DNA from: an uncultured Spirochaetales bacterium
GTDB lineage: Bacteria; Spirochaetota; Spirochaetia; SPDA01; CAYXSD01
Length of the DNA: 64,000 nucleotides
Direction: 5' to 3'
Assembly (NCBI GenBank): GCA_964466335.1
Contig: CAYXSD010000002.1
Coordinates: forward strand, 33,238 to 97,237
The translations under genes and the position numbers were made by a program. Each line of letters opens with the position of its first letter. The first letter of the stretch is position 1. This document shows positions 49,133-62,556 of this stretch, piece by piece. The notes beneath the pieces were generated by a model that was not told the DNA's origin, ran no database searches, and saw nothing but the letters and a program-made list of their open reading frames with translations.

Positions 49133-51124
49133 ATGGAGTATAAAAGCGAGGTACTCGCGTTACTAAAATTGTACACGAAGCGTAATCGGAGTGCTAATCT
49201 CAATTTTACTGATTTTCTCGAATTTGTTGGAAAGTATGTTCAACAATACGCACAAAAACGACCGAAACTCGCCGCCCTTAAAGAAAACACCTCCCTGCAG
49301 GTAACGGTGGAATTGGAAGAGATGGCCACTCAAGGCATCTGCACCCTTACGTACGATGATAAGGGGAAGCTCTCCTCTCTCCATTTTCCCGGCTATTTCA
49401 AGTCGGTGGTGGAGCAATACTATGTAACAATGAAGGAAGACCCGGAAATGCTCTTTCCCGATGAGGAAAGGTTGAAGTTGGAGGTCCCGGGGGATTTGAA
49501 GACGGTATTAGACGTCAAAAACGATTTTCTCAACTTTCTTGGTTCCATGTCTTTGGACGATGAGAACAAAGTAATAAAAATTACCTTCCCGGAAGATTTG
49601 AAATCCATGATTATTACGCTTCCGGTAATGCGGGAAATGCTGCTTCAGCTCTGTGTAAAGAAAATGTCCCTCTTTTTTAACAAACAGAAAAATTTAAATT
49701 ACTACAGGAACAGACTCTATTCAGTGTTTGGAAATAAGAATATTACTGTTCAGGACCTCATTACCGGAATCGTTCAGGACCAGTCCAGGGTATACGATAC
49801 CTTTCGTTCCCCCAACGATTTTCAGTTTCGATTTTGGACAACCCTTTCAAATTTGATTATTAAAGATTACAAAGATAAAGCCAATAAACTCGAGGAGGAA
49901 CATGAGATTTGCCAGGCCTGTTACCTTTTGGGGTTCTACTGCGTATATTTTAGAAAGATGGAACAGAAGGAGAAGGAGGCGGAGGGGAGTTTAAGGGAAG
50001 TGGAGCGCCTCTTTCGAAAGGAGCCGTTCCTCTACACTCTTTCCGATATATACGGGTGCAAGGACAGTAAAGGCCTGCCCGTATTAAAGAACGTTTCAAG
50101 AGAGAGGATCGACACCTTTATATCGGAGAGGAGCTCAAAACAGGAGAAGGACAAACTTCCGGAAATTGTAAGGCTTAGGACCCCGGATAAAAAAGAATAC
50201 TATGTGAGAAAAGAAGCACTCTTAGGTATATTTGTCAATCGCCGAAAAGAAATGATCCAGAAGCTTAAAAGTAAATTCCTTCAGCGATGGGTAGGGGTCC
50301 TAAAGGAACACTCCACCTTAAAGGAGATGAAGGAGGAGAGGGCCTTTACGCAGAGCATCGATCAGGCCGTTAAAGAAGAGGACCCCATATTCTACAGTAT
50401 GCTCAATTTTAGTCTCCTTTTTCTGCTTAAAGATGAGGTAAATACCAGCTACAGTGTGGACCAGGAGTTGGAACAGGTCTTGGATCTTAAGAAACAGGAC
50501 CTCGTTTCCATCCCTCAGCTTTTTCAGCTTAACCGGGAGAAGCTCTATGCTGAAGCAAGGTCCCATCTCCCCTTTATGGAAACATTGCCCGTTATTGGGG
50601 GAATCGTAGTCTTTTTGAAAAGACTCTTTGGAGGGGGCAAAAAAAAGGGAAAGAAAGGTAAGACAGGTCCTTCAGAGAAAAATGGAACTGTCTCAGCTTT
50701 TGGCGGGAATGTAATTATGGGGGAAGGAAAGCCTATGGGAGGGGGAGAAAAAGGTACTGTTAATGTTAGGGCGACGGCAAAGAAGAACCGGGCGGAATAC
50801 ACAAAGCGTGTAGCCGAATTAAAGGTACATTTCGTAGGCAAGTCGACTCCCTTGGATCAGAGGCTTCAAGAACTCATTGACAAGTGGAACCATTTGATCG
50901 ATCCCACTGCCCGAGAGCATCTCGTGGAGGATGTCAACTCAGCGGTAAGGGCGTTTTTAAGAAGGAACAACTGGGGTTCCTCCAGCCGCACTCCTTCGGT
51001 GGAGGAGATCCAGAAAATGGCAATGAGATTGGCAGAAGACAGCATGTTTACCCAGATAAAGCGGAAAGATCCATTTTGGCGTTACCTTGAGGTGTACATT
51101 GTGAGGGTACTCTCAGAAAAATAG
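49133..51124 (+). CDS. Hypothetical protein, 663 aa, one internal hydrophobic segment followed by a Gly/Lys-rich stretch
   Basis: A long ORF with coding-like composition and no motif I can recognise. Confidence 0.4.
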   Translation: MEYKSEVLALLKLYTKRNRSANLNFTDFLEFVGKYVQQYAQKRPKLAALKENTSLQVTVELEEMATQGICTLTYDDKGKLSSLHFPGYFKSVVEQYYVTMKEDPEMLFPDEERLKLEVPGDLKTVLDVKNDFLNFLGSMSLDDENKVIKITFPEDLKSMIITLPVMREMLLQLCVKKMSLFFNKQKNLNYYRNRLYSVFGNKNITVQDLITGIVQDQSRVYDTFRSPNDFQFRFWTTLSNLIIKDYKDKANKLEEEHEICQACYLLGFYCVYFRKMEQKEKEAEGSLREVERLFRKEPFLYTLSDIYGCKDSKGLPVLKNVSRERIDTFISERSSKQEKDKLPEIVRLRTPDKKEYYVRKEALLGIFVNRRKEMIQKLKSKFLQRWVGVLKEHSTLKEMKEERAFTQSIDQAVKEEDPIFYSMLNFSLLFLLKDEVNTSYSVDQELEQVLDLKKQDLVSIPQLFQLNREKLYAEARSHLPFMETLPVIGGIVVFLKRLFGGGKKKGKKGKTGPSEKNGTVSAFGGNVIMGEGKPMGGGEKGTVNVRATAKKNRAEYTKRVAELKVHFVGKSTPLDQRLQELIDKWNHLIDPTAREHLVEDVNSAVRAFLRRNNWGSSSRTPSVEEIQKMAMRLAEDSMFTQIKRKDPFWRYLEVYIVRVLSEK

Positions 51125-51149
51125 GAGTTGTTCGAATAAAAAATCTGGA

Positions 51150-51716
51150 TTATTCTACTTTTCTATTTATTAAGTGAAGAAATTCTTGACGAGTAGTAAG
51201 ACTGCGCTTGAAGTTTCCCAGCACCGAGGAGGTGGTCATTACGGAATTCTGCTTCTCCACCCCCCGCATCATCATACAGAGATGGCGGCATTCCATAACA
51301 ACCCCTACTCCTTGGGCATCGGCCGTTTTTAGCACCGTCTCCGCGATTTCCGCGGTAAGGCGTTCCTGGATCTGCAGGCGCCTGCTGTACATATCAACAA
51401 TCCGAGCGATCTTTGAGACCCCTAACACCTGGTTTTCCGCAATGTACCCTATATGACACCTTCCGTAGAAGGGCAGCATATGGTGTTCACAGAGACTGTA
51501 CACCTCAATGTCCCGCACAATGATCATGTTGTTGGCTTCCGATTCAAAGACGGCGTCGTTTACAATATCATCTAGGTCCATCCTGTAACCGCTGGTAAGA
51601 AAATTCCAGGCTTTAGCCACCCTGTCGGGCGTGTTCTGAAGACCCTCCCTCTTAGGATCTTCGCCAAGTTCAATCAAAAGTTCGCGGATCAGTCTTTTTA
51701 CCTTTTCATGGTCCAT
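51150..51716 (-). CDS. folE: GTP cyclohydrolase I
   Basis: 188 aa with the FolE active-site region [18 protein letters not shown]. Confidence 0.85.
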
Positions 51717-51855
51717 AATGCTTCCTCTGTTTTTTGTCTCTGTTCCTTATGTGAGGGCTGTCCCCGTTAAGATGGAGAGAAATTGTATTCTGTCCTTATC
51801 CGATCGTAAAGTAAGAATAATCGGTACCCGGGATCAACCAATAATGCCTGCCGTG

Positions 51856-54546
51856 TTAGGCTTTTTCGACCTTCACTGCACAGACCTTGAACTCCGGTAT
51901 CTTCGCAATCGGGTCCAAGGCGTCATTGGTGAGGATGTTCGCGGCAGCCTCCTTGAAGTGGAACGCCATAAAGACGGAGCCCGGTCTCGATCGCTTTGTT
52001 ACCACCGCCCGGGCGGTAACGGTACCGCGGCGGGAGGAGATTCGTGCGTTTTCCCCATCTGATATTGCCAAGGCTTCCGCGTCGACGGGGTGAATTTCTA
52101 CAAACCCGTCGGGCCTTACTTCATCCAGTCCCTCTGACCTTCTTGACATAGTACCGGTGTGGAAGTGATAGAGGATTCTCCCTGTGGTGAGAGCATAGGG
52201 ATACTCCTCGTCGGGAAGTTCCGCCGGATCGATGAAGTCCACAGCACTAAACAGCCCCTTCCCTCTGGCAAAAGCGTCCTTATGGAGGTAGGGAGTGCCC
52301 GGGTGGTCCTTTGTGGGGCAGGGCCACTGGAGGCCCATCCTTTCAATCCGTTTGTGTGTTATTCCGCCGTAGATCGGCATAACCGAGTTAATTTCCTCCA
52401 TGATGTGACTGGTACTGTCGTAGCGCATAGGATACCCCATTCTGCTGCTCACATCGCAGAGAATTTCCCAGTCCAGGCGTGCTTCTCCCGGGGCGGGCCG
52501 AATCTCCCGAAGGAGTTGGACCCTTCGTTCAGTGTTGGTAAAGGTTCCGTCCTTTTCGGCAAAACTCGCGGCGGGGAGTACTACATCAGCATACTCAGCT
52601 GTATCAGAGAGAAAGATATCCTGAACAACAATGAACTCCATTGCCTCCAGGTCCTTCTTGACCCTGTTTATGTTGGGATCGCTTAGGAAGGGGTTTTCAC
52701 CCATGATATACATACCTCGTATGGAGCCGTCCTCTGCTCCATGAAGCATCTCTACCACCGTCAATCCCAGATCGGGCGAGAGCGAAGTCTTCCAGGCCTC
52801 CTCGAATTTCTTTTGAAGCATTTCGTCCGTGACCTTCTGGTATCCCGGATACACATTGGGAAGGGCCCCTAAGTCGCAGGCCCCCTGAACGTTGTTCTGG
52901 CCCCTTAAAGGATTCACCCCGGTGTGTTTTTTCCCAATATTCCCGGTGAGCATCGCTAAGTTAGCCAGACTCAAGACATTGTCCGTGCCCGTGGTGTGTT
53001 GGGTAATCCCCATGCTGTAAACGATAGAGGCGGTCCCGGCGGTCGCGTACATCCTAGCCGCTTTTACAATGTCCTCCGCCGGTACACCGCTAATCTCCGA
53101 GGCACGTTTCGGTTCGTACTTCAGAACAACTTCGCGGAACTGTTCATAGTTTTCCGTCCTCTCGGCGATAAACTCCTCATCCGCCAATCCCTCGTTGATG
53201 ATAACATTCATGATGCCGTTAAAAAGGGCAACATCAGTTCCCGATTTATGCCTCAACCAAAGGTCGGCGAAAGGGACCAGCCCGATCCGTCTGGGGTCCG
53301 CTACTATGAGGTTCCCCCCGTTTTTCTCCACTGCTGCTTTAATGTCCAAGGCAATAATGGGATGGGCCTCGGTAGTGTTGGACCCTGTAACCAAAATACA
53401 GTCGGCGTTCCTCAGTTCCGCCATGGAGTTGGTCATTGCGCCGGAGCCGAAGGCCCTGGCGAGACCGGTAACGGTGGAAGAGTGGCAGAGTCTGGCGCAG
53501 TGGTCCACATTGTTCGTGCCGATACAGGCGCGGATGAATTTCTGAAAAATGTAGTTTTCTTCGTTGGTGCACTTCGCGCTGGAAAGTCCGCCAATGGCGT
53601 TGGGGCCGTATTTTTCCTTGATCTTGGTAAGATTTTCCGCCGTGTAGCTTAAAGCCTCTTCCCAGGATGTTTCCTCGAAGGATCCGTTTCGTTTTATCAG
53701 GGGCTTCGTTAACCGTTCCGGATGATCGATGAATTCGGTACCGAATTTACCCTTCACACAGAGGTTCCCGTTATTGACAGTGTTTTTGTCCGGGGTGGTA
53801 ACCTTAACCAGTTTGTTCTCTTTGGTGTGCATCTCCAGGGTACAGCCGCAACCGCAGTAGGGGCAGATCGTTTTTTCGCTTGTAAGTTCCCACTCTCTCC
53901 CCTTACCGATACGGTTTTTCTCAATAAGCGCACCAACGGGGCAAACGCTTATACAACGTCCGCAGGAAACACAGGTGGTATCTTGGAGTTTTCGGTCGAA
54001 AGCAGTGGCAATGGTAGCGGGAAATCCCCGGGCTCCGATGTTTATAGCCCGATCGAATTGGACTTCATTGCAGACATAAACGCAGCGACCGCAGAGGATA
54101 CACTTGTCGTAATCCCGGACAATAAAGGGATCATCATCTCTGATACCCCTTTCATTTCGTTCACCCTCGAAGGAGGGGCGGGTAATACCGAATTCGTAGG
54201 CGTACTTTTCCAGGAGACAGGTACCGCTTTTTTCACAGGTAATGCAGTCCACCTTGTGGTCCGAGAGGATCAACTCCAGGTTGAAGCGTCTCGCGTTACG
54301 GACGCGTTCCGTATCTGTATGTACCACCATTCCCTCGGCGGCCGCGTGAGAACAGGATGCGGCGAGGGACCTCATTCCTTCTACCTCTACCACACAAAGG
54401 CGGCAGGAGCTCATGGGGGGGAGGTCTTCACCGTAACAGAGGTGGGGTATTTCCACACCGGCCTTTTTAGCTGCCCAGTAGAGGGTCACTCCATTCTGTA
54501 CTGAAATTTTCTTTCCGTCTATTGTTAATGTAATATTGCTGCTCAT
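51856..54546 (-). CDS. fdhA: Molybdopterin-containing formate dehydrogenase alpha subunit (FdsA/FdhA type, NuoG-like N-terminus fused to a MopB catalytic domain), Cys-type
   Basis: N-terminal plant-type [2Fe-2S] motif. A His-Cys3 [4Fe-4S] motif (HKVDCITCEKSGTC), two CxxCxxCxxxCP ferredoxin motifs and the MopB cluster CPYCGCGC follow. CARLCHSST aligns to the FdhF RVUHGPS active site with Cys in place of Sec. There is no in-frame TGA. Confidence 0.6.
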   Translation of the reverse strand: MSSNITLTIDGKKISVQNGVTLYWAAKKAGVEIPHLCYGEDLPPMSSCRLCVVEVEGMRSLAASCSHAAAEGMVVHTDTERVRNARRFNLELILSDHKVDCITCEKSGTCLLEKYAYEFGITRPSFEGERNERGIRDDDPFIVRDYDKCILCGRCVYVCNEVQFDRAINIGARGFPATIATAFDRKLQDTTCVSCGRCISVCPVGALIEKNRIGKGREWELTSEKTICPYCGCGCTLEMHTKENKLVKVTTPDKNTVNNGNLCVKGKFGTEFIDHPERLTKPLIKRNGSFEETSWEEALSYTAENLTKIKEKYGPNAIGGLSSAKCTNEENYIFQKFIRACIGTNNVDHCARLCHSSTVTGLARAFGSGAMTNSMAELRNADCILVTGSNTTEAHPIIALDIKAAVEKNGGNLIVADPRRIGLVPFADLWLRHKSGTDVALFNGIMNVIINEGLADEEFIAERTENYEQFREVVLKYEPKRASEISGVPAEDIVKAARMYATAGTASIVYSMGITQHTTGTDNVLSLANLAMLTGNIGKKHTGVNPLRGQNNVQGACDLGALPNVYPGYQKVTDEMLQKKFEEAWKTSLSPDLGLTVVEMLHGAEDGSIRGMYIMGENPFLSDPNINRVKKDLEAMEFIVVQDIFLSDTAEYADVVLPAASFAEKDGTFTNTERRVQLLREIRPAPGEARLDWEILCDVSSRMGYPMRYDSTSHIMEEINSVMPIYGGITHKRIERMGLQWPCPTKDHPGTPYLHKDAFARGKGLFSAVDFIDPAELPDEEYPYALTTGRILYHFHTGTMSRRSEGLDEVRPDGFVEIHPVDAEALAISDGENARISSRRGTVTARAVVTKRSRPGSVFMAFHFKEAAANILTNDALDPIAKIPEFKVCAVKVEKA

Positions 54547-54572
54547 GGTAACTTCCTTTTAACCTACTAGGA

Positions 54573-56366
54573 TCATGAAACTTTAATGGCATCGAAGCGG
54601 CATGTGCTTAGACACATTCCACACTTAATACACTTATCCTGATCAATGACATGGACCTGCTTCGCCTCCCCGCTGATTGCGTCGACGGGACAGGCCTTAA
54701 AACAGGCATGACATCCGGTACAGTTCTCTTCAACTACGGTGTACTGGATGAGGTTTTTACAGACCCCCGCGGGACAGCGTTTTTCTTTGATATGCGCGTC
54801 ATACTCATGACGGAAATACTTCAATGTGGTGAGCACAGGATTTGGGGCGGTCTGCCCAAGGGCACAGAGGGCGGAGTCCTTAATAGCGTAGGCGGCGTTT
54901 TCCAGGATCTCGATGTCTTTTTCCGTTCCCCGTCCTTCGCAGATTGCCGTTAAGGTTTCCAGCATGCGTTTGGTACCGATCCTGCAGGGGACACATTTTC
55001 CGCAGGACTCCTCCTGGGTAAAGGAAAGAAAGTAACGGGCCACCTCTACCATGCATGTGGTTTCGTCCATAACGATCATTCCGCCTGAGCCCATAATACA
55101 ACCGGCTTTTATAAGCGACTCGAAATCTACGGTGATGTCCAAAAGAGATTCGGGAATACAGCCCCCGGAGGGCCCCCCGGTCTGGACAGCCTTAAATTTT
55201 TTGCCGTTAGGAATACCGCCGCCAATGTCGTAGATAATCTCCTTCAAGGTTATTCCCATGGGGACCTCTACCAAACCGGTATTGTTGACTTTTCCCACTA
55301 GTGAAAAAACTTTGGTGCCTTTACTGGTTTCTGTTCCGATGGATGAGAACATCTCAGCTCCGTGGTGAATGATTCGCGGAACATTGGCGAAGGTTTCTAC
55401 ATTATTGATATTAGTGGGTTTTCCCATATAACCGGCTTGGGCGGGGTAGGGCGGTTTTACCCGCGGCTGGGGCAGTCGGCCTTCCAGGGAGTTAATAAGG
55501 GAGGTTTCCTCTCCGCACACGAAAGCCCCCGCTCCGCGATGGACAGAGAGATCAAAGTTGAAACCGCTTCCGAGGATGTCCTCTCCTAAGAGACCGTAAT
55601 CCCTCGCCTGGTCAATGGCTAAAAGGACCCTCTTCAATGCCAGGGGATATTCGTTTCTAATATAGATAAATCCCTCATGAGCACCAATAGCCCTGGCCCC
55701 GATAATCATTCCTTCTAAGACCGCATGGGGATCGGATTCCACGATGGACCGGTCCATAAAGGCACCGGGGTCCCCCTCGTCGGCGTTACAAATAATATAC
55801 TTCTCTTCGCCTGGCTGGTCTTTACAGATCTTCCACTTTCTTCCAGTGGGAAACCCGGCCCCGCCCCGGCCTCGGAGGCCCGAGTTAAGTATTTCCTCTA
55901 CTATATCATCCGGAGTCATCTGGGTAAGTGCTTTTGCCAGGGCTTTGTAGCCCTCGCGGCCTATGTACTCGTCGATACTTTCAGGGTCGACAATCCCCCG
56001 GTTTGCCAGGGCGATAAGGCGCTGTTTCTTGAAGAAACCGATATCGCTCATTTTGGGGATCGGGGCTTCCTCCTTGGAAGGAGTGTACATGAGTTTTGGA
56101 ACAGGCCTCCCTTTTAGGAAATGTTCTTCCACCAAATAGGGGATGACCTCCTCAGTGAGGAGTTGATAGAAAATTCCATCCGGCTGGACTACCACAATAG
56201 GACCGTTGGCGCAGAAACCGTTACAGCCGGTAGTAACCACTTGGATTTCATTTTCCAATTTATGCTTTTTTAGTTCTTTTTCCAGGGTCTCTTTGATCTC
56301 AAAGGCGCCGTTGGAAACACAACCGGTACCAGTGCAGACCATTAGGTTCATTCTATAACGTGCCAT
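54573..56366 (-). CDS. NuoF-like NAD(P)H-binding flavoprotein subunit (HydB/HndC/FdhB type) with an N-terminal [2Fe-2S] and C-terminal 2x[4Fe-4S]
   Basis: GRGGAGFPTGRKW supplies the FMN/NADH motifs and ESCGKCVPCRIG the [4Fe-4S]. The N-terminal thioredoxin-like Cys motif is MVCTGTGC...GCNGFC. The C-terminus carries CTGCHACFKACP and CIKCGMCLSTC. Confidence 0.8.
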   Translation of the reverse strand: MARYRMNLMVCTGTGCVSNGAFEIKETLEKELKKHKLENEIQVVTTGCNGFCANGPIVVVQPDGIFYQLLTEEVIPYLVEEHFLKGRPVPKLMYTPSKEEAPIPKMSDIGFFKKQRLIALANRGIVDPESIDEYIGREGYKALAKALTQMTPDDIVEEILNSGLRGRGGAGFPTGRKWKICKDQPGEEKYIICNADEGDPGAFMDRSIVESDPHAVLEGMIIGARAIGAHEGFIYIRNEYPLALKRVLLAIDQARDYGLLGEDILGSGFNFDLSVHRGAGAFVCGEETSLINSLEGRLPQPRVKPPYPAQAGYMGKPTNINNVETFANVPRIIHHGAEMFSSIGTETSKGTKVFSLVGKVNNTGLVEVPMGITLKEIIYDIGGGIPNGKKFKAVQTGGPSGGCIPESLLDITVDFESLIKAGCIMGSGGMIVMDETTCMVEVARYFLSFTQEESCGKCVPCRIGTKRMLETLTAICEGRGTEKDIEILENAAYAIKDSALCALGQTAPNPVLTTLKYFRHEYDAHIKEKRCPAGVCKNLIQYTVVEENCTGCHACFKACPVDAISGEAKQVHVIDQDKCIKCGMCLSTCRFDAIKVS

Positions 56367-56746
56367 TACGATATCCTTTCGCTTCCGATTGCCAGCGCGT
56401 AGTCTTCAACGATTTCTCCGCCCAATACATGTCCGGAGAAGATTTTCTTTACCTTATCGCTGTTTAAATCGATGTATTTTACCGGGGCGGAACCTTGAAT
56501 TTCAATAGTTGCCATAGGTTCTTTGCTGCAAAGCCCGGCACATCCGGAAGTGGTAAGAATAATGTCCTTGGCGTCCACATTCTCGATTTCATTCATAAAG
56601 GTGGTAAGGATTTCCCTCGCTCCCGAGGCAATGCCGCAGGTCCCCATGTGGACTGTAATCTTTACTCTTCCAGCTCCCTCGCGAAGCTGGGTGGTCGATC
56701 TCATATTCTGGCTTATTTTGTCCAGGTCTTCCGGTTTTAGCTTCAT
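56366..56746 (-). CDS. Small HndB/HydD-like thioredoxin-fold ferredoxin-like subunit
   Basis: 126 aa, translationally coupled (ATGA overlap) to the nuoF-like gene. Only three Cys are present (TCGIASG, SGCAGLC). The assignment rests on size and position. Confidence 0.45.
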   Translation of the reverse strand: MKLKPEDLDKISQNMRSTTQLREGAGRVKITVHMGTCGIASGAREILTTFMNEIENVDAKDIILTTSGCAGLCSKEPMATIEIQGSAPVKYIDLNSDKVKKIFSGHVLGGEIVEDYALAIGSERIS

Positions 56747-56750
56747 ACCA

Positions 56751-57194
56751 TTACTCCTTTTCCTCTTTATTGGTGTCCCTTGTATTCCTATATCTATAGA
56801 TAAACGAAATCTCCGGATGTGTGAACTCCATTACCCGGATTGTTTCGGCTAAATCCCCCATCGGTTTGCGGTCCGGGTGGCTCCACTTGAAAGTCGCTAT
56901 GAGGCGGGTCCCGCCACCTGTTTTGGATTCTACAACAAGTTTGCCTTCGGCGTCACGTGCCGATTGGGCCAATAGGGGGACCCCCAACCCGATTCGCTTG
57001 TTTTCCTTGGAGCTAAAGAAGGGATCGGTTACATTTTTCATTGTGGTCTCGTCCATACCTTCACCGTCGTCTATTATCTCCAATTTGAGGATGTCCGTTT
57101 CCTGGTCCTCTGTAACATCGATGGTGATGTTCTCCGCCCCGGCCCGGATCGAATTATCCACAATGTCCAGAATATGCAATGATATGTCCTCCAT
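56751..57194 (-). CDS. Stand-alone GHKL (histidine-kinase-like) ATPase domain protein
   Basis: 147 aa with HATPase_c N-, G1- and G2-box-like motifs (LDIVDNSIRAG, IIDDGEGMD, GLGVPL). There is no HisKA or DHp domain. Confidence 0.65.
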   Translation of the reverse strand: MEDISLHILDIVDNSIRAGAENITIDVTEDQETDILKLEIIDDGEGMDETTMKNVTDPFFSSKENKRIGLGVPLLAQSARDAEGKLVVESKTGGGTRLIATFKWSHPDRKPMGDLAETIRVMEFTHPEISFIYRYRNTRDTNKEEKE

Positions 57195-57202
57195 ACCTCT
57201 CC

Positions 57203-57949
57203 CTAAAACTGAATTGATGAAAGGATTCTCCTTCCTTCTTGTTCTTTCACCGCTAATTGAAGTTCTCGGACCGTTGGGGTTTTCAGGAGGAACTCCGTTT
57301 TTGTCGTTCCGATGTCTCTTGGCTCATGGGCATCGGAGAAGGTGACAAAGGGGAAGCCCAGCCCCTTAAACTGGAAGGGGGAATGGTTATAGTTTCTCGA
57401 AAGTTCCAAGGCGTCCAAGGCCGTGTCCTCCGGGATAATACCCAACTGGCTTATGATTCCGTAGGCCTCCCTGTCAATATGGGATGCAATAGCGATTCCG
57501 CCGAATTCGTGAATTTTGGTAACGATTGTTTCAAGTTCTAAATCTGTTGCTCCAATAAGAAGATGTTCGTTCAATCCCGTTATGTAATCCTCATGGTCTA
57601 CGATGTACTGAGGCCCGAAAATGTCAGGATTGTTATCGCCGGGAAGATGAGAATAAATAATCCTCTGCATTTCTTCCAAGCCTTCTGCATGATCGAAATC
57701 AAAGATCCCGAGGAGATGTATTTCAGACTGAGTGGTTATCTCCATTCCACCTAGCACGGTCAGGGACGTTCCCTCCGCCGCCCTCCGTACTGCCTGCCAG
57801 TTCTCCGAGGCATTGTGGTCGCAGATGGCAATGGCCTGAAGTCCAGCTTTCAGAGCAGCGGCTACAATAGTGGTGGGGACACTTTTAGAGGCGCCGCAGG
57901 GGGAAAGGCAGGTGTGAATGTGCAAGTCCATGGAGAACCTCTTAAGCAT
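57203..57949 (-). CDS. PHP-domain phosphoesterase
   Basis: MDLHIHTCLSPCG...AICDHN is the PHP metal-binding His motif. The start is set at M(LKRF) at 57949. The ORF-table start at 57997 overlaps the upstream gene by 56 nt. Confidence 0.6.
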   Translation of the reverse strand: MLKRFSMDLHIHTCLSPCGASKSVPTTIVAAALKAGLQAIAICDHNASENWQAVRRAAEGTSLTVLGGMEITTQSEIHLLGIFDFDHAEGLEEMQRIIYSHLPGDNNPDIFGPQYIVDHEDYITGLNEHLLIGATDLELETIVTKIHEFGGIAIASHIDREAYGIISQLGIIPEDTALDALELSRNYNHSPFQFKGLGFPFVTFSDAHEPRDIGTTKTEFLLKTPTVRELQLAVKEQEGRRILSSIQF

Positions 57950-58292
57950 CCTTCTGTCCGGGGAGCCCGGCTTTGTAGAGCCTTCCTGCCATCTCAAAGG
58001 CCGGGAGCCGGCTTACCAGTAGGGGCATCTTTTCCGATTTTGCCTTTTCCAGGGTCGCCTCTTCCGGCCTTCTGCCTCCAATAAGAACGATCCCGCTGAG
58101 TTCCTTCATTAGGGCTACAGCGACAATATTAATATGGATCTGCAGAGTAATCCAAAGATCGTCTTTTTGGGCGTTGCCTATGACGTCGCTTAAAAGATCG
58201 CTGGCGTATCCGCATCGCACTTCCCGATCGAGATCGGATTCACCGGACAGTACTTCCAGATCGAATTGTTCCACGATATCACTCAGTTTCAT
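57942..58292 (-). CDS. DRTGG-domain protein
   Basis: 116 aa. It resembles the DRTGG domain seen with CBS domains and phosphotransacetylase N-termini (LLSDVIGN...IVLIGGRRP...LLVSRL). It overlaps the CBS/GHKL gene by 4 nt. Confidence 0.5.
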   Translation of the reverse strand: MKLSDIVEQFDLEVLSGESDLDREVRCGYASDLLSDVIGNAQKDDLWITLQIHINIVAVALMKELSGIVLIGGRRPEEATLEKAKSEKMPLLVSRLPAFEMAGRLYKAGLPGQKDA

Positions 58293-59209
58293 GGTCCCTC
58301 CAGGGGAATTGTGCTCCTTAGGGTGGTCCCCTCTCCTACCATAGAGGTAATGGAGAATTCTTCGGAGTTTTTCTTGATGTTTGGCAAACCCATTCCTGCT
58401 CCGAACCCCAATTCCCTAATCCAGTCCGGTGCAGTGGAGTATCCCGGCATCATTACCTTTTCTATATCCTCAATACCGGGGCCCTTGTCGGTTATTTCTA
58501 TCAGAATCTTTTCCTTGTCGAGCTTTGCTTTAATTTTTCCTCCTCCCCCGTAGAGTATACAGTTCATCTCCGCCTCGTAAAACACTATGGACGCTCGAGT
58601 TACAATGTCGGGATGGATATTCAGATAGGAGAGATTTTTGCGGAATTTACTGGAAATTTCTCCTCCCACTTCGATCTTTCCCCCGGGTACGGAGTAAGAG
58701 AAGGAGAGTTCTGTGTGGTCCGAGACTACTTCATGAAAGAAGTGGAATTTGCTGAAATCTTCCATTTCTTTCTGATAGAAATCGATATCCAAGGCCTTTA
58801 ATAGGCAGATAATAACATCGAATTTGGTAATAACCCCAATAAGCAACCCGGTTTCTCGTTCTATTACCGGAAATTCATAGAACCGGTACTGTTCGAAATG
58901 TCTGATGGCTTCTACCAGGGGTTCATCGTCGAAGAGGGTCACCACATCCTTTGACATCCGGTGGGTCACCTCCACTTCTTCCTTCCCGTTCTGAAGCCAG
59001 TTAATGTAGTCTTCTACACTGATGATCCCTATGAGGTGTTTATCCTCAATCACCGGTGCGGCGGTGATCTTTTGGCTCCGCAGTATAGACCGGACCTCGC
59101 TCATTTTGGTGTCCTTGGAAATGGTGCAAACATCCAGCTCCACAGCGTCCCGTAATTTTAATTCGTAAAACAATTCCTGGACCTTGTGGATATGCTGTAG
59201 ACGCTTCAT
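58289..59209 (-). CDS. CBS-pair plus GHKL ATPase domain protein
   Basis: Two CBS-like motifs in the N-terminal half (ITAAPVIEDKHLIGIISVEDY, EFPVIERETGLLIGVITKFD). A C-terminal HATPase_c follows (ITDKGPGIED...GFGAGMGLPN...GEGTTL). Confidence 0.65.
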   Translation of the reverse strand: MKRLQHIHKVQELFYELKLRDAVELDVCTISKDTKMSEVRSILRSQKITAAPVIEDKHLIGIISVEDYINWLQNGKEEVEVTHRMSKDVVTLFDDEPLVEAIRHFEQYRFYEFPVIERETGLLIGVITKFDVIICLLKALDIDFYQKEMEDFSKFHFFHEVVSDHTELSFSYSVPGGKIEVGGEISSKFRKNLSYLNIHPDIVTRASIVFYEAEMNCILYGGGGKIKAKLDKEKILIEITDKGPGIEDIEKVMMPGYSTAPDWIRELGFGAGMGLPNIKKNSEEFSITSMVGEGTTLRSTIPLEGP

Positions 59210-59592
59210 GGAGTGCTGCTATAGTCCTTATTTCCGGTACAACCGACCATGCCGGCGCAGTAGAGCCTTCCACAGGCATCGAAAAGAGAGTAATCCGTTC
59301 TTATAAGGGGGACCTGGTTTTTCGTTGCCAATTCCATTGTTTCTTTGGGCGGGACCTTCCCGAAGACAAAACAGACAGCCGCAATTTCTACCATCTCCGC
59401 GGTCCTAATTGTTTGCGGATTGGTCAGTCCTGTAAGAAGGAGGGATTTTCGTTTGCTACTGGAGAGTATATCACTCATTAAATCGGAGGCATTAACGGAG
59501 GAAATAGGATGGGTAAGCCAGTTGTTGTCTATTAGTACCTCGGCGTCTAAAATCTCAAGGATGTTTTCCCAACTAAAGGACCTCTGCTGCAT
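59206..59592 (-). CDS. DRTGG-domain protein (second copy)
   Basis: 128 aa and similar to the 57942..58292 product (LMSDILSS...LLLTGLTNPQ...PLIRTDY). It overlaps the downstream gene by 4 nt. Confidence 0.5.
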   Translation of the reverse strand: MQQRSFSWENILEILDAEVLIDNNWLTHPISSVNASDLMSDILSSSKRKSLLLTGLTNPQTIRTAEMVEIAAVCFVFGKVPPKETMELATKNQVPLIRTDYSLFDACGRLYCAGMVGCTGNKDYSSTP

Positions 59593-59598
59593 AGGCTG

Positions 59599-60051
59599 TT
59601 AATCCTTATACTGTTTGAGGAGTCTTGAGACCTTTTTGGGATCGAGTTTTCCATGATACTCCCCGTCTATTACGGCCAGCGGCCCCAGGGCGCAGGCGCC
59701 CACGCAGTTGACTGTTTCCAGGGTAAATTTCCCGTCCTCTGTTGTCTCTCCCGCTTTAATTCCCAGGTTCCGTTCAATTTCTTCCACTACCTGAGCGGCC
59801 CCCCGAACGTGACAGGCCGTACCTACGCAGACAGCACAGTAGTGTTCTCCCATAGGTTCTAATCTCAGGGAAGCATAAAAAGTACAGAGGCTGTAGAGCT
59901 TGCTTAGAGGGACCTTCGTTTCCTCGGAGACTGTTTCGAGTTTGTCCTCCGGGATATATCCGTATTCCGAGGACATGTCCTGAAGAAGACCAATAAGCGA
60001 TGTTTTTCCAGATGTATAACCCTCTATAATTGTGTCAAGTGTGTCCGCCAT
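59599..60051 (-). CDS. NuoE-like thioredoxin-fold [2Fe-2S] subunit (HydC/HoxE/FdhG type)
   Basis: The Cys pattern is CAVCVGTAC...C(x4)C in VNCVGACALGP. A GGAGGA RBS lies 9 nt upstream of the ATG. It is the first gene of the operon. Confidence 0.75.
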   Translation of the reverse strand: MADTLDTIIEGYTSGKTSLIGLLQDMSSEYGYIPEDKLETVSEETKVPLSKLYSLCTFYASLRLEPMGEHYCAVCVGTACHVRGAAQVVEEIERNLGIKAGETTEDGKFTLETVNCVGACALGPLAVIDGEYHGKLDPKKVSRLLKQYKD

Positions 60052-60102
60052 TCTGCCTTATCCTCCATATGTAGTGATTAGCCTAAGGGCTAGACTCCAA
60101 TT

Positions 60103-60157
60103 TGTCAAGTTTCATTTTCTTTTCAGTCTCTTTCAAAATTAACCAATTTTGAAAGAG
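60103..60157 (-). promoter_or_regulatory. Putative promoter and upstream palindrome of the formate dehydrogenase operon
   Basis: On the minus strand there is a TTGACA (60103..60108) with a weak -10 (TAGGCT) 17 nt downstream. A perfect 13-bp inverted repeat, CTCTTTCAAAATT-N4-AATTTTGAAAGAG, spans 60128..60157 and is centred near -62. Confidence 0.35.
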
Positions 60158-60178
60158 GCTGATCCGCAAAGATAATAT

Positions 60179-61444
60179 TTATTTTTTTACCACCGGTTTT
60201 AAGTAGGCGCTCCAGTAACTCATTCCAACGAATAGTCCTCCTCCAATGATATTGCCTAGGGTCACGGGTATAAGATTGGCCGCTATGAAACTTCCCCAGT
60301 TTAATGCCCCGGCATCGTAGGCCGCCGGTGCGGCAACACCACCTAGGGTCTTAAGGATAATTCCCATGGGGATGAAGTACATATTGGCAATGCTGTGTTC
60401 AAAACCAATGGCTACGAAGGCCATAACAGGGAAGATCATAGCAAAGATCTTTCCAACCACCTGCCTTGAGGCAAGTGCCATCCACACGGCAAGGCAGACC
60501 AACCAGTTACATCCGATGGCCCGCGTGAGGGCTTCCACAAAGGAGAGAGATACCTTTCCGTAGGCAATATTCATAGCGGAGGCAGCTATGGCGTTTCCCC
60601 CGGTTTCCCAGAGTCCTGAAAAGAAGTAGAGCATGACGATAAATATCGACCCTATAAAGTTGGCCACATACACCACGCCCCAACGGGCTGCCATCTTTCC
60701 CAAAGTGATTTCTCCGGTCATGACACTGGAAATCATGAGGTTGTTTCCAGTAAAGAGTTCCGCTCCCGCAATGACCACGAGAATTAGTCCTAAACTGAAG
60801 ACGCTTCCACTCATGAACTTGGTAAATCCTGTCCCGAAATGGGAAGCCATGTCGAAGGTCACTGTGGTTGCCAGTACCCCCGCGAAGGCAATATAAGCCC
60901 CGGCAAGGACGGCAAGTACGAAAACGGACATCCAAGGGGAGGTAGTTTTACCGACTCCCACTTTTTGGGCTACCGTTTCGGCGATGGTTTTAGGAGAGTT
61001 GTCCTCCAGAGAGGGGGTGGGAAAGGAGACGGAACCGATCATGGATTTGGCCCGGTCTAGTTCTTTTTTCTCGTTTTCTATCTTCTTCTTTTGGGCCTTT
61101 TGTACCGCCTGGGTAATCTCCACCGGTGAAAAGGGCTTAGCAATGAAGTCTAAGGCGCCCCGCTTCATAGCCTCTGTCGCCCGGTCCACCGAGGGATAGC
61201 CGCTTATCATTACCACTGTTGATTCGGGAGAGCGGGTTTCAATTTCGGTAACCACATCCATGCCGTTAAATTCGGGCATCTGCCAATCGCAGAGAATAAC
61301 ATCGTAGAACGACTCCCCAATGAGTTTTAAGCCCTCCGTTGGGCTAGTGGTCGTAACGACTTCAAAGCCTTCGGCAGTAAAAATTTTGGAACATGAATCC
61401 AGCACTACCTGTTCGTCGTCGATAATCAACATCTTTTCTTTCAT
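60179..61444 (-). CDS. Response-regulator receiver domain fused to a formate/nitrite transporter (FocA/NirC family) channel
   Basis: The canonical REC motifs at residues 1-120 are DD, the acceptor Asp in ILCDWQMP, S in VMISGY and K in AKPF. Residues 170-421 carry FNT signatures (GAELFTGNN, GFEHSIANM, NLIPVTLGNIIGGGLFVG) and six hydrophobic helices. Confidence 0.8.
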   Translation of the reverse strand: MKEKMLIIDDEQVVLDSCSKIFTAEGFEVVTTTSPTEGLKLIGESFYDVILCDWQMPEFNGMDVVTEIETRSPESTVVMISGYPSVDRATEAMKRGALDFIAKPFSPVEITQAVQKAQKKKIENEKKELDRAKSMIGSVSFPTPSLEDNSPKTIAETVAQKVGVGKTTSPWMSVFVLAVLAGAYIAFAGVLATTVTFDMASHFGTGFTKFMSGSVFSLGLILVVIAGAELFTGNNLMISSVMTGEITLGKMAARWGVVYVANFIGSIFIVMLYFFSGLWETGGNAIAASAMNIAYGKVSLSFVEALTRAIGCNWLVCLAVWMALASRQVVGKIFAMIFPVMAFVAIGFEHSIANMYFIPMGIILKTLGGVAAPAAYDAGALNWGSFIAANLIPVTLGNIIGGGLFVGMSYWSAYLKPVVKK

Positions 61445-61540
61445 TTTTTGCTCCTCTTTGCTATCCCTGTAGTGTATGGTACAACCCTGCTTTTTCGGGC
61501 ATGGGTTATAAACTGATGTCCGTTTTGTCTTATTGCAGTG

Positions 61541-62164
61541 TTACCAAATTTCGGCGCTTAACTTCTGATTAAACCAGCGGCGCTGAACATCCGATAGAGG
61601 ACCTGTGTAACTTTCAATCCACTTCTGGTCCCCCGTTAGAAGGGCAAGCTTCTCTTGGGTGGTAAGATCATAGGGATCGAGGGCATCCACCTTTTTAGAG
61701 AATATTTCCTCTTCAAATATCGGGTCGGTGCCGAGCCGATCGAGGATGGAGAGGACTTCATCCTTATGTACCAGACCCTGCTTTTCCTGGGGTGTATCAG
61801 TTATTTTTGCTGTTGCCTTTTCAATTCTGGATAAAAGATCATCCGGGGAGAATGGTTTTTCTACGTAATCGGCGGCGCCCAACTTCATAGACTGCACTGC
61901 CGTATCAACGGAGGAGTACCCGGTAATAATTATGACCGGCAAGCCCGGCTTTTCCTTCTTAATTTCCCTAAGCACCTTCATACCACCGATTTCGGGCATA
62001 CGGATGTCCGAGAGCACCAAAGAGAATTCTTCCTTCAGCACCTGCTTAAGACCCTCCTTAGGGCTAAGAGAGGTGTGGACTTCGAAATCTCTCGATGTGA
62101 GGATCTTTTTTACACTGTCCAGAATAATCTGATCGTCATCTATTACCATTATTTTTCTAGCCAA
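61541..62164 (-). CDS. Response regulator with a receiver domain and an 85-aa C-terminal domain of unknown type
   Basis: The REC motifs are DDD, D in LSDIRMP, T in IITGY and K in EKPF. This REC is closely similar to that of the REC-FNT fusion. The C-terminal domain has no recognisable motif. Confidence 0.7.
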   Translation of the reverse strand: MARKIMVIDDDQIILDSVKKILTSRDFEVHTSLSPKEGLKQVLKEEFSLVLSDIRMPEIGGMKVLREIKKEKPGLPVIIITGYSSVDTAVQSMKLGAADYVEKPFSPDDLLSRIEKATAKITDTPQEKQGLVHKDEVLSILDRLGTDPIFEEEIFSKKVDALDPYDLTTQEKLALLTGDQKWIESYTGPLSDVQRRWFNQKLSAEIW

Positions 62165-62178
62165 GGATATATCCCTCC

Positions 62179-62556
62179 TTATGTATTTGTGTTTTCTTTG
62201 TGATTGTTAAGAATGTTATTGATAGCGTTTATTAGTTCTTCGGGAGTAAAGGGTTTTGGAATGTATTTCTCCGCTCCCGTGGACAAGCTGTGTCGAATGG
62301 TCTCTTCTGTGGAATAACCGCTTATTACCAATATGGGGATATGGGGAAAACGTTTCTTGCAGATAGAAATCAAATAGAGCCCGTCCTTTTCCGGCATTTT
62401 TATGTCCGCAATAATTAAACCTATTGAATGGTTCTCTAAGTTTTCCAGGGCCTCATCCACCGAGGAGGTGTAAAGGGATTCGAATTCAGTGTCCCGGAGG
62501 ATTCTCTTACAGCTTTCGATTACAATGGGATCATCATCGACAATAAGAATTTTCAT
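62179..62556 (-). CDS. Stand-alone receiver domain protein (CheY-like single-domain response regulator)
   Basis: 125 aa. The REC motifs are DDD, D in IADIKMP, S in ISGY and K in PKPF. Confidence 0.75.
   Translation of the reverse strand: MKILIVDDDPIVIESCKRILRDTEFESLYTSSVDEALENLENHSIGLIIADIKMPEKDGLYLISICKKRFPHIPILVISGYSTEETIRHSLSTGAEKYIPKPFTPEELINAINNILNNHKENTNT

Follow-up and report, generated by a model that had tools for sequence, protein, structure and literature searches.

A Cys-type formate dehydrogenase operon with a bifurcating-type flavoprotein core in an uncultured Spirochaetales bacterium

Introduction

The interconversion of formate and CO2 coupled to NAD(P)H as well as ferredoxin serves acetogens, syntrophs and fermenters as a key energy-saving step, and is relevant to biocatalytic CO2 reduction. 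Schut et al. (2022; PMC9304861) predicted a Type 1 Fdh-Bfu in which the pterin domain is contained in BfuA, gave C. hydrogenoformans as an example and counted 82 Fdh-type sequences. Here we analyzed 64,000 nt of DNA from an uncultured Spirochaetales bacterium (contig CAYXSD010000002.1, positions 33,238 to 97,237; this whole stretch is called the window below) and found on its minus strand an operon of nine genes that probably encodes a soluble three-subunit formate dehydrogenase/CO2 reductase of the BfuABC (HydABC-type) family, of the class Type 1 Fdh-Bfu. The class has been predicted before, and the operon adds to it a member of the Cys type from the Spirochaetota. The fused Type 1 arrangement represents the simplest possible bifurcating formate dehydrogenase, with three subunits, Cys in place of selenocysteine (Sec) and no separate Fdh subunit, and a Sec-free operon of the Cys type would lend itself in practice to heterologous expression and cryo-electron microscopy. 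The less ordinary elements of the locus are a conserved six-gene accessory set and a phosphorylation-ready formate channel.

The locus resembles Type 1 Fdh-Bfu in combining BfuBC with a BfuA whose H-cluster domain is replaced by a pterin domain next to A5, and in having all the predicted cofactor sites; its likeness to the C. hydrogenoformans example is judged from the published description and not from a sequence comparison. It differs in its host, which belongs to the Spirochaetota, whereas the available parts of Schut et al. (PMC9304861) name Firmicutes, Proteobacteria, Chloroflexi and Archaea, and in having five accessory genes and hndB embedded in the operon and a receiver-FocA two-component system adjacent to it. 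Two purified enzymes, the HylABC-Fdh of G. acidurici, described as tungsten- and selenium-containing, and the Hyt-Fdh of C. autoethanogenum (Wang et al., 2013), likewise couple formate/CO2 to NAD(P) and ferredoxin via a HydBC-type core; in these, according to Schut et al. (PMC9304861), a distinct Fdh subunit carries the pterin (Types 3 and 2, respectively), whereas here it is fused to BfuA and the active site has Cys.

The NAD+-dependent FdsABG enzymes (6tg9/6tga, 9wxb, 6vw7), of which 6tg9/6tga are from Rhodobacter capsulatus (PMC8965080), share with the locus the architecture of the alpha subunit, the Cys-His/Arg active site and the NuoF/NuoE-like partners. However, FdsB corresponds to only the central flavoprotein part of the protein described here, without the N-terminal thioredoxin-like and C-terminal ferredoxin domains, and the R. 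capsulatus enzyme does not bifurcate, as stated by Schut et al. (PMC9304861). An fdsD-like gene was not identified among the operon genes. The bifurcating [FeFe] and [NiFe] hydrogenases (HydABC(D,E)/HndABCD) of A. woodii, A. mobile, T. kivui and T. maritima, for which the A. woodii gene list reads hydA1, hydB, hydD, hydE plus hydC, provide close full-length matches to the B and C subunits and also have a small GHKL ATPase and a thioredoxin-like HydD/HndB gene, and their HydA N-terminal Fe-S module is the nearest to that of FdhA. They differ in that the locus has a formate dehydrogenase domain rather than an H-cluster or NiFe site, and genes for DRTGG, CBS-kinase, DRTGG and PHP proteins inserted. 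Other candidates were set aside: the NADP-dependent formate dehydrogenase of Moorella thermoacetica has a beta subunit of the SfrB type (PMC13040438), Fdh3 of Thermococcus onnurineus is without NuoEF-type subunits, and Tepidanaerobacter acetatoxydans, considered as a comparison, is without any formate dehydrogenase.

Results and Discussion

The NuoF-like and NuoE-like proteins match bifurcating enzymes

Domains were called with Pfam and NCBIfam, and structural relatives were sought by aligning the protein sequences to PDB chains. Residues 1-594 of the NuoF-like protein aligned with A. woodii HydB (852 bits) and with the NiFe-HydB of A. mobile (833.6 bits), and scores of 676-756 bits were obtained against the HydB proteins of T. 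maritima and T. kivui, the B subunits of 8oh5, 9bov and 9n5u (Stn/Nfn-type) and 9mqx. By comparison, the non-bifurcating FdsB and complex I NuoF aligned with the central part only (about residues 101-530, the FdsB alignment ending at about 522), at 355-410 bits. The protein contains Complex1_51K (159.6 bits) and NADH_4Fe-4S (115.5 bits), with a GRGGAGFPTG motif, an FMN (flavin mononucleotide)/NAD(P) site and ligands for the B1 [4Fe-4S] cluster beside the FMN (Cys455, 458, 461 and 501). An N-terminal thioredoxin-like [2Fe-2S] domain (B5; 2Fe-2S_thioredx, residues 5-80; Cys11, 16, 48 and 52) and a C-terminal pair of [4Fe-4S] sites (B3 and B4; Fer4 dicluster, residues 543-596, eight Cys at 549-589) are present in addition, as are the five residues of the B2 site (Cys438, Cys476, His525, Cys531 and Cys536), whose numbers are identical in A. 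mobile HydB. A minimal FdsB-like beta subunit would hold FMN and one [4Fe-4S], whereas the protein found here has the extra domains and the B2 ligands. According to Schut et al. (PMC9304861), the non-bifurcating homologues are without the B2-B5 sites, and the B2 His is missing in just 8 of 1558 BfuB sequences; Losey et al. draw the same distinction between bifurcating and non-bifurcating enzymes (PMC7311640), and later structures place Zn at B2 (PMC11829005).

The NuoE-like protein has the four ligands of the C1 [2Fe-2S] cluster (Cys75, 80, 116 and 120). Its top PDB matches were all Bfu C subunits, led by T. kivui HydC (154.8 bits), A. mobile HydC (143.8 bits) and NfnC (136 bits); overall it scored 116-155 bits against Bfu C subunits, compared with 72-83 bits against FdsG and 88-93 bits against complex I NuoE. 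Judged by their conserved ligands, the NuoF-like and NuoE-like proteins carry every predicted cofactor site of a bifurcating BfuBC core.

FdhA is a predicted Cys-type formate dehydrogenase on a HydA/NuoG-like N-terminus

FdhA scored 894.5 bits against TIGR01591, the curated equivalog model for the formate dehydrogenase alpha subunit (cutoff 666.25), while all other MopB models stayed below their cutoffs (NasC, 576.7 against 1100; NuoG, 367 against 470; NapA, 344.9 against 904). Its Cys354-His355 and Arg548 align to Cys386-His387 and Arg587 of the FdsA-type chain 9wxb_B, numbers that we take to be those of the active site in the R. capsulatus enzyme, and none of the three residues varies among the 120 best homologues. 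A triad of Cys, His and Arg is accepted as the catalytic signature of formate dehydrogenases (PMC8965080). The motif CARLCHSS was confirmed, and the sole in-frame stop is the terminal TAA.

Five sets of Fe-S ligands are complete in FdhA, their residues being kept in 118-120 of 120 homologues: those of a [2Fe-2S] cluster (Cys37/48/51/65), a His-ligated [4Fe-4S] cluster (His97, Cys101/104/110), two ferredoxin-type clusters (Cys149-159 and Cys192-202) and the MopB [4Fe-4S] cluster (Cys228/231/235/263). The last is followed by Lys265 (CVKGKF), also invariant in all 120 like the Cys before it, and presumably placed between cluster and pterin, a role that we take from the FdhF and FdsA structures. 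The N-terminal 220 residues were closest to the N-termini of three solved bifurcating HydA proteins (209.6, 185.9 and 178.6 bits), ahead of FdsA (163.5 and 156.6 bits) and of monomeric CpI-type hydrogenase (about 84 bits). In bifurcating hydrogenases, an Fe-S module of this type passes electrons on to the flavoprotein. Over its full length, the best PDB matches of FdhA were FdsA-type enzymes (749-754 bits), and its catalytic domain scored 739-765 bits against chains deposited as the FdhF of hydrogen-dependent CO2 reductase (HDCR) or as F420-dependent formate dehydrogenase. FdhA is thus predicted to be a Cys-ligated Mo- or W-bis-pyranopterin formate dehydrogenase domain on a HydA/NuoG-like Fe-S N-terminus. 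The B and C subunits and the N-terminus of FdhA all score highest against bifurcating enzymes, and we therefore read the three as a BfuBC core with a formate-dehydrogenase BfuA.

Homologues that carry names come from metagenome-assembled genomes (MAGs) of Spirochaetota. A metagenome scan with FdhA returned relatives at 42-63% identity only, the close clade not being among the matches. In more distant metagenome relatives the open reading frames (ORFs) were broken near residues 352-374, where a TGA/Sec codon at the active site would break them, so Cys and Sec forms appear to coexist across the wider family.

The operon is intact and its gene order recurs in independent assemblies

The nine ORFs (Table 1) are all intact and are spaced by -8 to +26 nt, a spacing from which a single transcription unit is predicted. 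For the PHP gene, the ATG at 57949 is the most likely start (248 aa, as in the related contig L001), as opposed to the TTG at 57997 given in the ORF list. A metagenome contig from JGI is 99.91% identical to the window (22,145 nt, 20 mismatches, ungapped) and has the identical gene order, with a protein (P0001) that matches FdhA at 100% identity by BLASTP. An exact-sequence search with FdhA gave no record. Contigs of an NCBI MAG and of an ENA assembly are about 98.3-98.6% identical to the window with the order unchanged, and the nine-gene order is kept in relatives whose FdhA is 76% and 85% identical. Since the order is common to the near-identical contig, the roughly 98% identical contigs and these relatives, the arrangement is not an assembly artefact.

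These results bear out every detail of the observation made in the initial annotation. The order nuoE-like, five genes, hndB-like, nuoF-like and fdhA was recovered as nine intact minus-strand ORFs at its coordinates; the fusion of a NuoG/HydA-like Fe-S N-terminus to a molybdopterin domain was borne out by Pfam and by the five ligand sets; the absence of TGA from CARLCHSS was seen in the TGC codon of Cys354 and the lack of internal stops; the additional [2Fe-2S] and 2x[4Fe-4S] domains of the NuoF-like protein were found by Pfam and by its end-to-end alignment with HydB; and the HndB-like protein does have just three Cys. The adjacent REC-FocA channel was located 127 nt upstream of nuoE, with both of its domains matched. 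Of the checks that it had proposed, placement of the MopB domain put only the formate dehydrogenase model above cutoff, the active-site triad was in register with an FdsA-type enzyme, and the operon was uninterrupted in four independent assemblies.

Table 1. Coordinates and domain evidence for the operon, its neighborhood and related loci (numbers with the prefix L denote fetched loci and contigs; percentages are FdhA identities to the window).
Feature	Sequence	Coordinates	Strand	Size	Evidence or remark
NuoE-like (BfuC/HydC type)	window	59599-60051	-	150 aa	PF01257 157.9 bits
DRTGG/PucR-like protein 1	window	59206-59592	-	128 aa	PF07085 23.0 and PF07905 24.9 bits, both below cutoff
CBS pair + SpoIIAB-like GHKL ATPase/kinase	window	58289-59209	-	306 aa	CBS 70.4, HATPase_c 35.5 bits
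DRTGG protein 2	window	57942-58292	-	116 aa	PF07085 26.6 bits, above cutoff 25.2
PHP-family metal-dependent phosphoesterase	window	57203-57949	-	248 aa	PF02811 33.9, PHP_C 23.2 bits
Stand-alone GHKL (HATPase_c) ATPase, without HisKA	window	56751-57194	-	147 aa	PF02518 53.8 bits
HndB/HydD-like thioredoxin-fold protein	window	56366-56746	-	126 aa	[2Fe-2S] thioredoxin-like fold weak, 23.2 bits, cutoff 24.8
NuoF-like flavoprotein (BfuB/HydB type)	window	54573-56366	-	597 aa	Complex1_51K, NADH_4Fe-4S, 2Fe-2S_thioredx, Fer4 dicluster
FdhA	window	51856-54546	-	896 aa	Fer2_4, NADH-G_4Fe-4S_3, Fer4_Nqo3, Molybdop_Fe4S4, Molybdopterin, Molydop_binding
Cys354 codon TGC	window	53485-53487	-		position is Sec (TGA) in other members
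TTGACA-17 nt-TAGGCT element	window	60080-60108	-		read by eye
Inverted repeat arms	window	60146-60157 / 60128-60139	-	12 bp	read by eye
Receiver-FocA fusion	window	60179-61444	-	421 aa	Response_reg 95.9, Form_Nir_trans 264 bits
Receiver with 90-aa C-terminus of no assigned family	window	61541-62164	-		Pfam
Receiver-only protein	window	62179-62556	-		Pfam
Cache/HAMP/HisKA/HATPase sensor kinase	window	62553 to past window end 64000	-	648 aa in full	Pfam
folE (GTP cyclohydrolase I)	window	51150-51716	-
ORF convergent with operon region	window	49133-51124	+	663 aa
Same nine genes as window	L166				FdhA 85%, same order
Same nine genes as window	L164				FdhA 76%, same order
nuoE-hndB-nuoF-fdhA only	L165				FdhA 75%
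nuoE-nuoF-fdhA only	L003				FdhA 71%
BfuA-type partner beside accessory set, other phyla	L012	9284-12535
BfuA-type partner beside accessory set, other phyla	L005	12443-15697
BfuA-type partner beside accessory set, other phyla	L023	17004-19088
BfuA-type partner beside accessory set, other phyla	L032	15362-18955
BfuA-type partner beside accessory set, other phyla	L076	6769-9621
PHP-ATPase fusion	L014	11331-12509
PHP-ATPase fusion	L021	4310-5779
PHP-ATPase fusion	L025	11296-12486
PHP-ATPase fusion	L030	11337-12569
PHP-ATPase fusion	L055	11340-12506
PHP-ATPase fusion	L065	11255-12562
Short BfuA	L063	13113-13727		204 aa
Nfn/Stn-like BfuA-type cluster	L164	1-2996
HdrA-like cluster	L166	1-4450
nuoE-DRTGG-CBS kinase	L004	9163-10930
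Truncated nuoF + fdhA	L002	8469-12694
MobA-domain protein	L167	6627-7766	-	379 aa
MobA-domain protein	L168	6626-7765	-	379 aa

Between the channel gene and nuoE we noted a perfect 12-bp inverted repeat, CTCTTTCAAAAT-N6-ATTTTGAAAGAG, followed by a TTGACA element with a 17-nt spacer to TAGGCT; these are candidates for a terminator or operator plus a promoter. In scans for promoter and terminator consensus sequences, sites were no commoner than in shuffled sequence, and an Rfam scan of 50500-64000 at E<=1 gave no matches, including none to a molybdenum or tungsten cofactor (Moco/Wco) riboswitch.

The accessory genes are a widespread companion of the NuoE/NuoF core

Proteins related to the CBS-GHKL protein number in the thousands, and a scan of one genome per species found a relative encoded in at least 589 genomes. 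We annotated 80 fetched loci using the window's own proteins. In 54 of these, all five genes that lie between nuoE and hndB in the window were accompanied by a homologue of NuoF and, in nearly every case, by NuoE and the HndB-like protein as well, and nine more had all five genes with no NuoF within the fetched stretch. The remaining 17 missed at least one of the five; many are short contigs and some are full-length (L004, L031 and L045). By title, the records span many phylum-level groups, among them Planctomycetota, Chloroflexota, Acidobacteriota, Cloacimonadota, Spirochaetota, Gemmatimonadota, Bacteroidota, Desulfobacterota-type lineages, Aerophobetes, Bipolaricaulota, Fidelibacterota, Delongbacteria, TA06, Verrucomicrobiota, Nitrospirota and Acidimicrobiia. 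The order of the block differs among lineages, with the DRTGG, CBS-kinase, DRTGG and PHP genes remaining together. The five "signalling" genes that the initial annotation had listed are, together with hndB, a conserved and widespread companion of NuoE/NuoF and no local oddity.

The catalytic partner encoded beside the set varies, and includes a protein of about 1083 aa with Fer2_4, Fer4 and Pyr_redox_2 domains (HdrA-like), a 1197-aa Nfn/Stn-like protein, a 694-aa [2Fe-2S]-amidohydrolase fusion, a MopB-NuoE fusion and a Sec-type FdhA. We considered whether the large BfuA-like partners are hydrogenases and rejected this identity, as most are without an H-cluster motif and Pfam assigns them as HdrA-like, Nfn-like or amidohydrolase fusions. 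In several Planctomycetota loci, PHP and the small GHKL ATPase form a single fusion of 388-489 aa, which suggests that the two act together.

Within the clade of the window the accessory set is variably present (Table 1). Upstream of nuoE, L164 has an Nfn/Stn-like BfuA-type cluster and L166 an HdrA-like cluster with FlpD and Fe-S proteins, in both cases directly adjoining, and one BfuBC core might serve two catalytic modules there. In another spirochaetal locus (L063) the gene order is that of the window, but the final BfuA is only an N-terminal Fe-S module with no catalytic domain, and genes for a UbiE-like methyltransferase and a prenyltransferase-like protein come after it. The operon of Spirochaetota bin100 (CP070841.1) is apparently split over two sites, with nuoE-DRTGG-CBS kinase and nothing after it at 2.69 Mb (L004), and a truncated nuoF and fdhA beside acyl-CoA dehydrogenase and electron-transfer flavoprotein (ETF) genes at 0.25 Mb (L002); rearrangement, decay or misassembly may account for the split.

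DRTGG protein 1 and DRTGG protein 2 have an ASDL(M/L)SD motif in common. In the former, the form ASDLMSD is conserved across 61 sequences and the gene always adjoins that of the CBS-HATPase protein, and the latter has a weak likeness to the N-terminal domain of HPr kinase. In an AlphaFold2 model of the CBS-GHKL protein (mean pLDDT, the predicted local distance difference test score, 79), the best superposition of the C-terminal half was on SpoIIAB, an anti-sigma factor/Ser kinase (1til_E, TM-score 0.79 on the target), and the N-terminal half superposed on adenine-nucleotide-binding CBS pairs such as those of AcuB, MJ0100 and CBSX2. Sequence models for the former remained below cutoff (HATPase_c_2, 24.8 against 27.4; TIGR01925, 49.1 against 135), and the ATP-lid motifs YEAEMN, D.GPGI and ELGFGAGMG.PN are at least 95% conserved in 68 sequences. 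The PHP protein has intact metal-ligand motifs, a conserved HxHTxLSPC segment (46 sequences) and, as its best PDB match, 3e0f, a "putative metal-dependent phosphoesterase"; PDB sequence searches with the DRTGG and PHP proteins gave weak or generic matches only. The N, G1 and G2 boxes of the stand-alone GHKL ATPase are conserved, so that, judged by family conservation, both ATPases of the operon retain their ATP-binding boxes, and its position is that of hydE/hisK in hydrogenase operons.

The fold of the C-terminal half of the CBS protein, its intact ATP-binding motifs and the phosphoesterase gene in the block are reminiscent of SpoIIAB/RsbW partner switching. However, the operon has no STAS partner, PP2C or sigma factor and has DRTGG and PHP proteins in their places, and we rejected a classical partner-switching module because two of its three defining features failed, Pfam detecting no STAS and no PP2C domain in any operon protein. 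Pfam likewise detected no DNA-binding domain in any protein of the accessory set. Literature on HydD and the small ATPase (HydE/HisK) says just "maturation and/or regulation"; our searches found none on DRTGG, PHP or GHKL proteins with NuoE/NuoF, and nothing relevant on DRTGG with hydrogenase. Most likely, the five genes between nuoE and hndB regulate or mature the BfuBC core post-translationally by nucleotide sensing, possibly through a kinase/phosphoesterase cycle acting on the DRTGG proteins. More tentatively, and as a conjecture that we hold at less than even odds, the six genes including hndB could be a uniform control or maturation device for BfuBC whatever its catalytic module, joined in the window by a phosphorylation-gated formate channel. 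Such a device would respond to energy charge through adenine nucleotides, and perhaps to redox state as well, would switch the enzyme by the cycle on the DRTGG proteins, and would serve formate dehydrogenase, HdrA-like, Nfn-like or amidohydrolase-fused modules alike. An accessory set beside BfuBC may show how cells turn bifurcating enzymes on and off.

The HndB-like protein keeps three Cys

The HndB-like protein has Cys at positions 37, 69 and 73 and at no other, which with His33 would make a candidate site of three Cys and one His. His33 lies four residues ahead of Cys37, near the position of the first Cys of HydB. Because Cys37, Cys69 and Cys73 are invariant across the 55 members of the family (His33 is present in 45 of them), the three-Cys state is a conserved feature and not decay. 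Among PDB chains it was matched best by the B subunits of 8oh5, 9n5u and 9bov, in their N-terminal domains, and the segments aligned to it have three Cys as well. At the equivalent site, the NfnB of C. saccharolyticus has Zn, whereas other Bfu structures model [2Fe-2S] there (PMC11829005). We regard the protein as a probable fourth subunit (BfuD/HydD) that binds loosely.

A receiver-FocA channel and two-component genes accompany fdhA

The receiver-FocA protein was recognized by TIGR00790 (249.7 bits, cutoff 232.3) and scored below cutoff with the FocA equivalog (242 against 290.1). It has the canonical phospho-acceptor residues Asp53, Ser81 and Lys103 in the receiver, and AELFTGN and FEHSIANM are intact in the channel, which we take from FocA structures to be pore motifs. 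The fusion is rare: both halves were matched by five (P0241-P0245) of the best 150 matches in a library of 1.84 billion representative proteins, and we found no description of receiver-FocA fusions in the literature. In other lineages, NuoEF-FdhA loci have plain FocA genes beside them (L098, L102, L104 and L123).

Together with a sensor kinase and two receivers, the channel gene makes a four-gene set. In the window, L001, L167, L168 and L003 this set is found upstream of the operon, and in L164 on the downstream side of fdhA. We take its recurrence beside fdhA, in three different arrangements, as an argument that the two are functionally linked. A DNA-binding response regulator is absent from the two-component cluster (61541-64000), and the output of the system may be the channel itself, not transcription. 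Judging from the domains, phosphorylation by the Cache sensor kinase probably serves to gate the receiver-FocA channel.

Mechanism, direction and alternative readings

By analogy with the solved hydrogenase and Nfn members of the Bfu family, we infer that the enzyme encoded by the operon bifurcates electrons. Electrons from formate would pass from the pterin through the FdhA clusters A5 to A1 and the B1 [4Fe-4S] cluster to the FMN of the flavoprotein, where two electron pairs would be split; one pair would reduce NAD(P)+ there, and the second, at low potential, would travel via C1 (the [2Fe-2S] cluster of the NuoE-like protein) and B3/B4 (the C-terminal 2x[4Fe-4S]) to ferredoxin. The net reaction would be 2 formate + NAD(P)+ + Fd(ox) <-> 2 CO2 + NAD(P)H + Fd(red), where Fd is ferredoxin, and would be reversible. 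Several points weigh against the assignment of the operon to a bifurcating Type 1 Fdh-Bfu. We found no purified or solved Type 1 Fdh-Bfu in the literature, nor any Fdh-Bfu in our copy of the PDB, so that homology of the BC core is the basis for ferredoxin coupling. In the known cases bifurcation requires the extra clusters, which may not suffice for it; the operon is without a ferredoxin gene, and the sequence does not discriminate between NAD and NADP or between Mo and W. The roles given above to the accessory genes are likewise drawn solely from domain content and gene neighborhood. As to direction, an extracytoplasmic Cache sensor beside a channel is no less compatible with uptake induced by the substrate than with export.

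Alternatively, the operon could encode a plain NAD(P)+-dependent, FdsABG-like formate dehydrogenase in which the extra Fe-S domains of the flavoprotein are structural or vestigial and ferredoxin is uninvolved. The architecture of the alpha subunit is that of FdsA, with alignment over the full length, JGI labels two homologues "formate dehydrogenase (NADP+) alpha subunit", and non-bifurcating NADH-dependent enzymes built from homologous subunits exist (PMC7311640). We nonetheless consider this unlikely, since the B and C subunits score about twice as high against bifurcating enzymes as against FdsB and FdsG, and since the operon and its relatives retain all ligands of the sites that non-bifurcating homologues miss according to Schut et al. 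(PMC9304861). Moreover, the JGI name is an automatic orthology label, and the beta subunit of the Moorella NADP-dependent enzyme is of a different, SfrB type (PMC13040438). It is far less probable still that the MopB domain acts on a substrate other than formate, such as nitrate, or is a redox-inactive NuoG-like remnant. The scores of the NasC, NapA and NuoG models are strong though below threshold, and Stn/Nfn-type BfuA subunits hold a degenerate Fdh-like domain (8oh5_C, 9bov_A; PMC11829005), but the formate dehydrogenase equivalog alone exceeded its cutoff, the Cys-His and Arg residues are intact and invariant, the Molydop_binding domain is intact, and the scores of the catalytic domain against the FdhF of HDCR and F420-dependent formate dehydrogenase are high (739-765 bits).

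The direction in which a bifurcating enzyme would work is a more even question. We lean weakly toward the confurcating direction at low formate, as in anoxic sediments and digesters, with CO2 reduced to formate as an electron sink and the formate exported via the channel; where formate is abundant, the enzyme would switch to formate oxidation. The confurcating hydrogenases of fermenters would offer a parallel, acyl-CoA dehydrogenase and ETF genes adjoin nuoF-fdhA in L002, and by our estimate, using potentials from PMC13040438, the CO2/formate couple at micromolar formate would be less negative than the average of NADH and ferredoxin. Conversely, the system could be dedicated to formate uptake and oxidation, with the Cache kinase sensing external formate, the receiver-FocA channel opening, and oxidation yielding NADH and reduced ferredoxin, for example for C1/folate metabolism. 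This is a serious possibility, to which we give somewhat less than an even chance. A periplasmic-type kinase and a channel accompany fdhA in the three arrangements described above, and a gene for GTP cyclohydrolase I lies directly downstream, and genes of folate and C1 metabolism lie near fdhA in L003. This reading differs from the one we prefer solely in physiological direction, and FocA channels conduct both ways. Against it, ferredoxin-coupled oxidation would be unfavorable at micromolar formate on the same estimate (PMC13040438), and uncultured Spirochaetota in methanogenic reactors express formate-generating genes, so that related organisms are reported as formate producers (PMC7382037). 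The initial annotation had seen a complete unit for formate import and oxidation, or CO2 reduction; the channel and the enzyme stand, but the evidence favors import and oxidation no more than it does reduction of CO2 and export of the formate.

Surroundings of the operon

The folE gene has the orientation of fdhA and is located 139 nt downstream of it. Genes near fdhA in L003 encode a type IB GTP cyclohydrolase (folE2), serine hydroxymethyltransferase (SHMT), ThyA, a Prismane-family protein (carbon monoxide dehydrogenase or hybrid-cluster) and a CooC-like ATPase. The position of folE beside fdhA and the folate genes of L003 hint at a link to folate/C1 metabolism.

Genes for maturation of the pterin cofactor were sought by tblastn with the FdhD and MobA proteins of L003, and neither had a match inside the window. 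In the near-identical contigs L167 and L168, a MobA-domain protein is encoded just past the position of the window end, divergently from the kinase gene; its MobA-like guanylyltransferase domain (residues 190-374) scored below cutoff, and its N-terminal 190 aa have no family match. In the equivalent place, L003 has fdhD and a MobA-like gene. On the other side of the operon, the convergent 663-aa ORF gave no significant Pfam match, and 20 other large ORFs of the window, scanned with Pfam, are housekeeping genes only.

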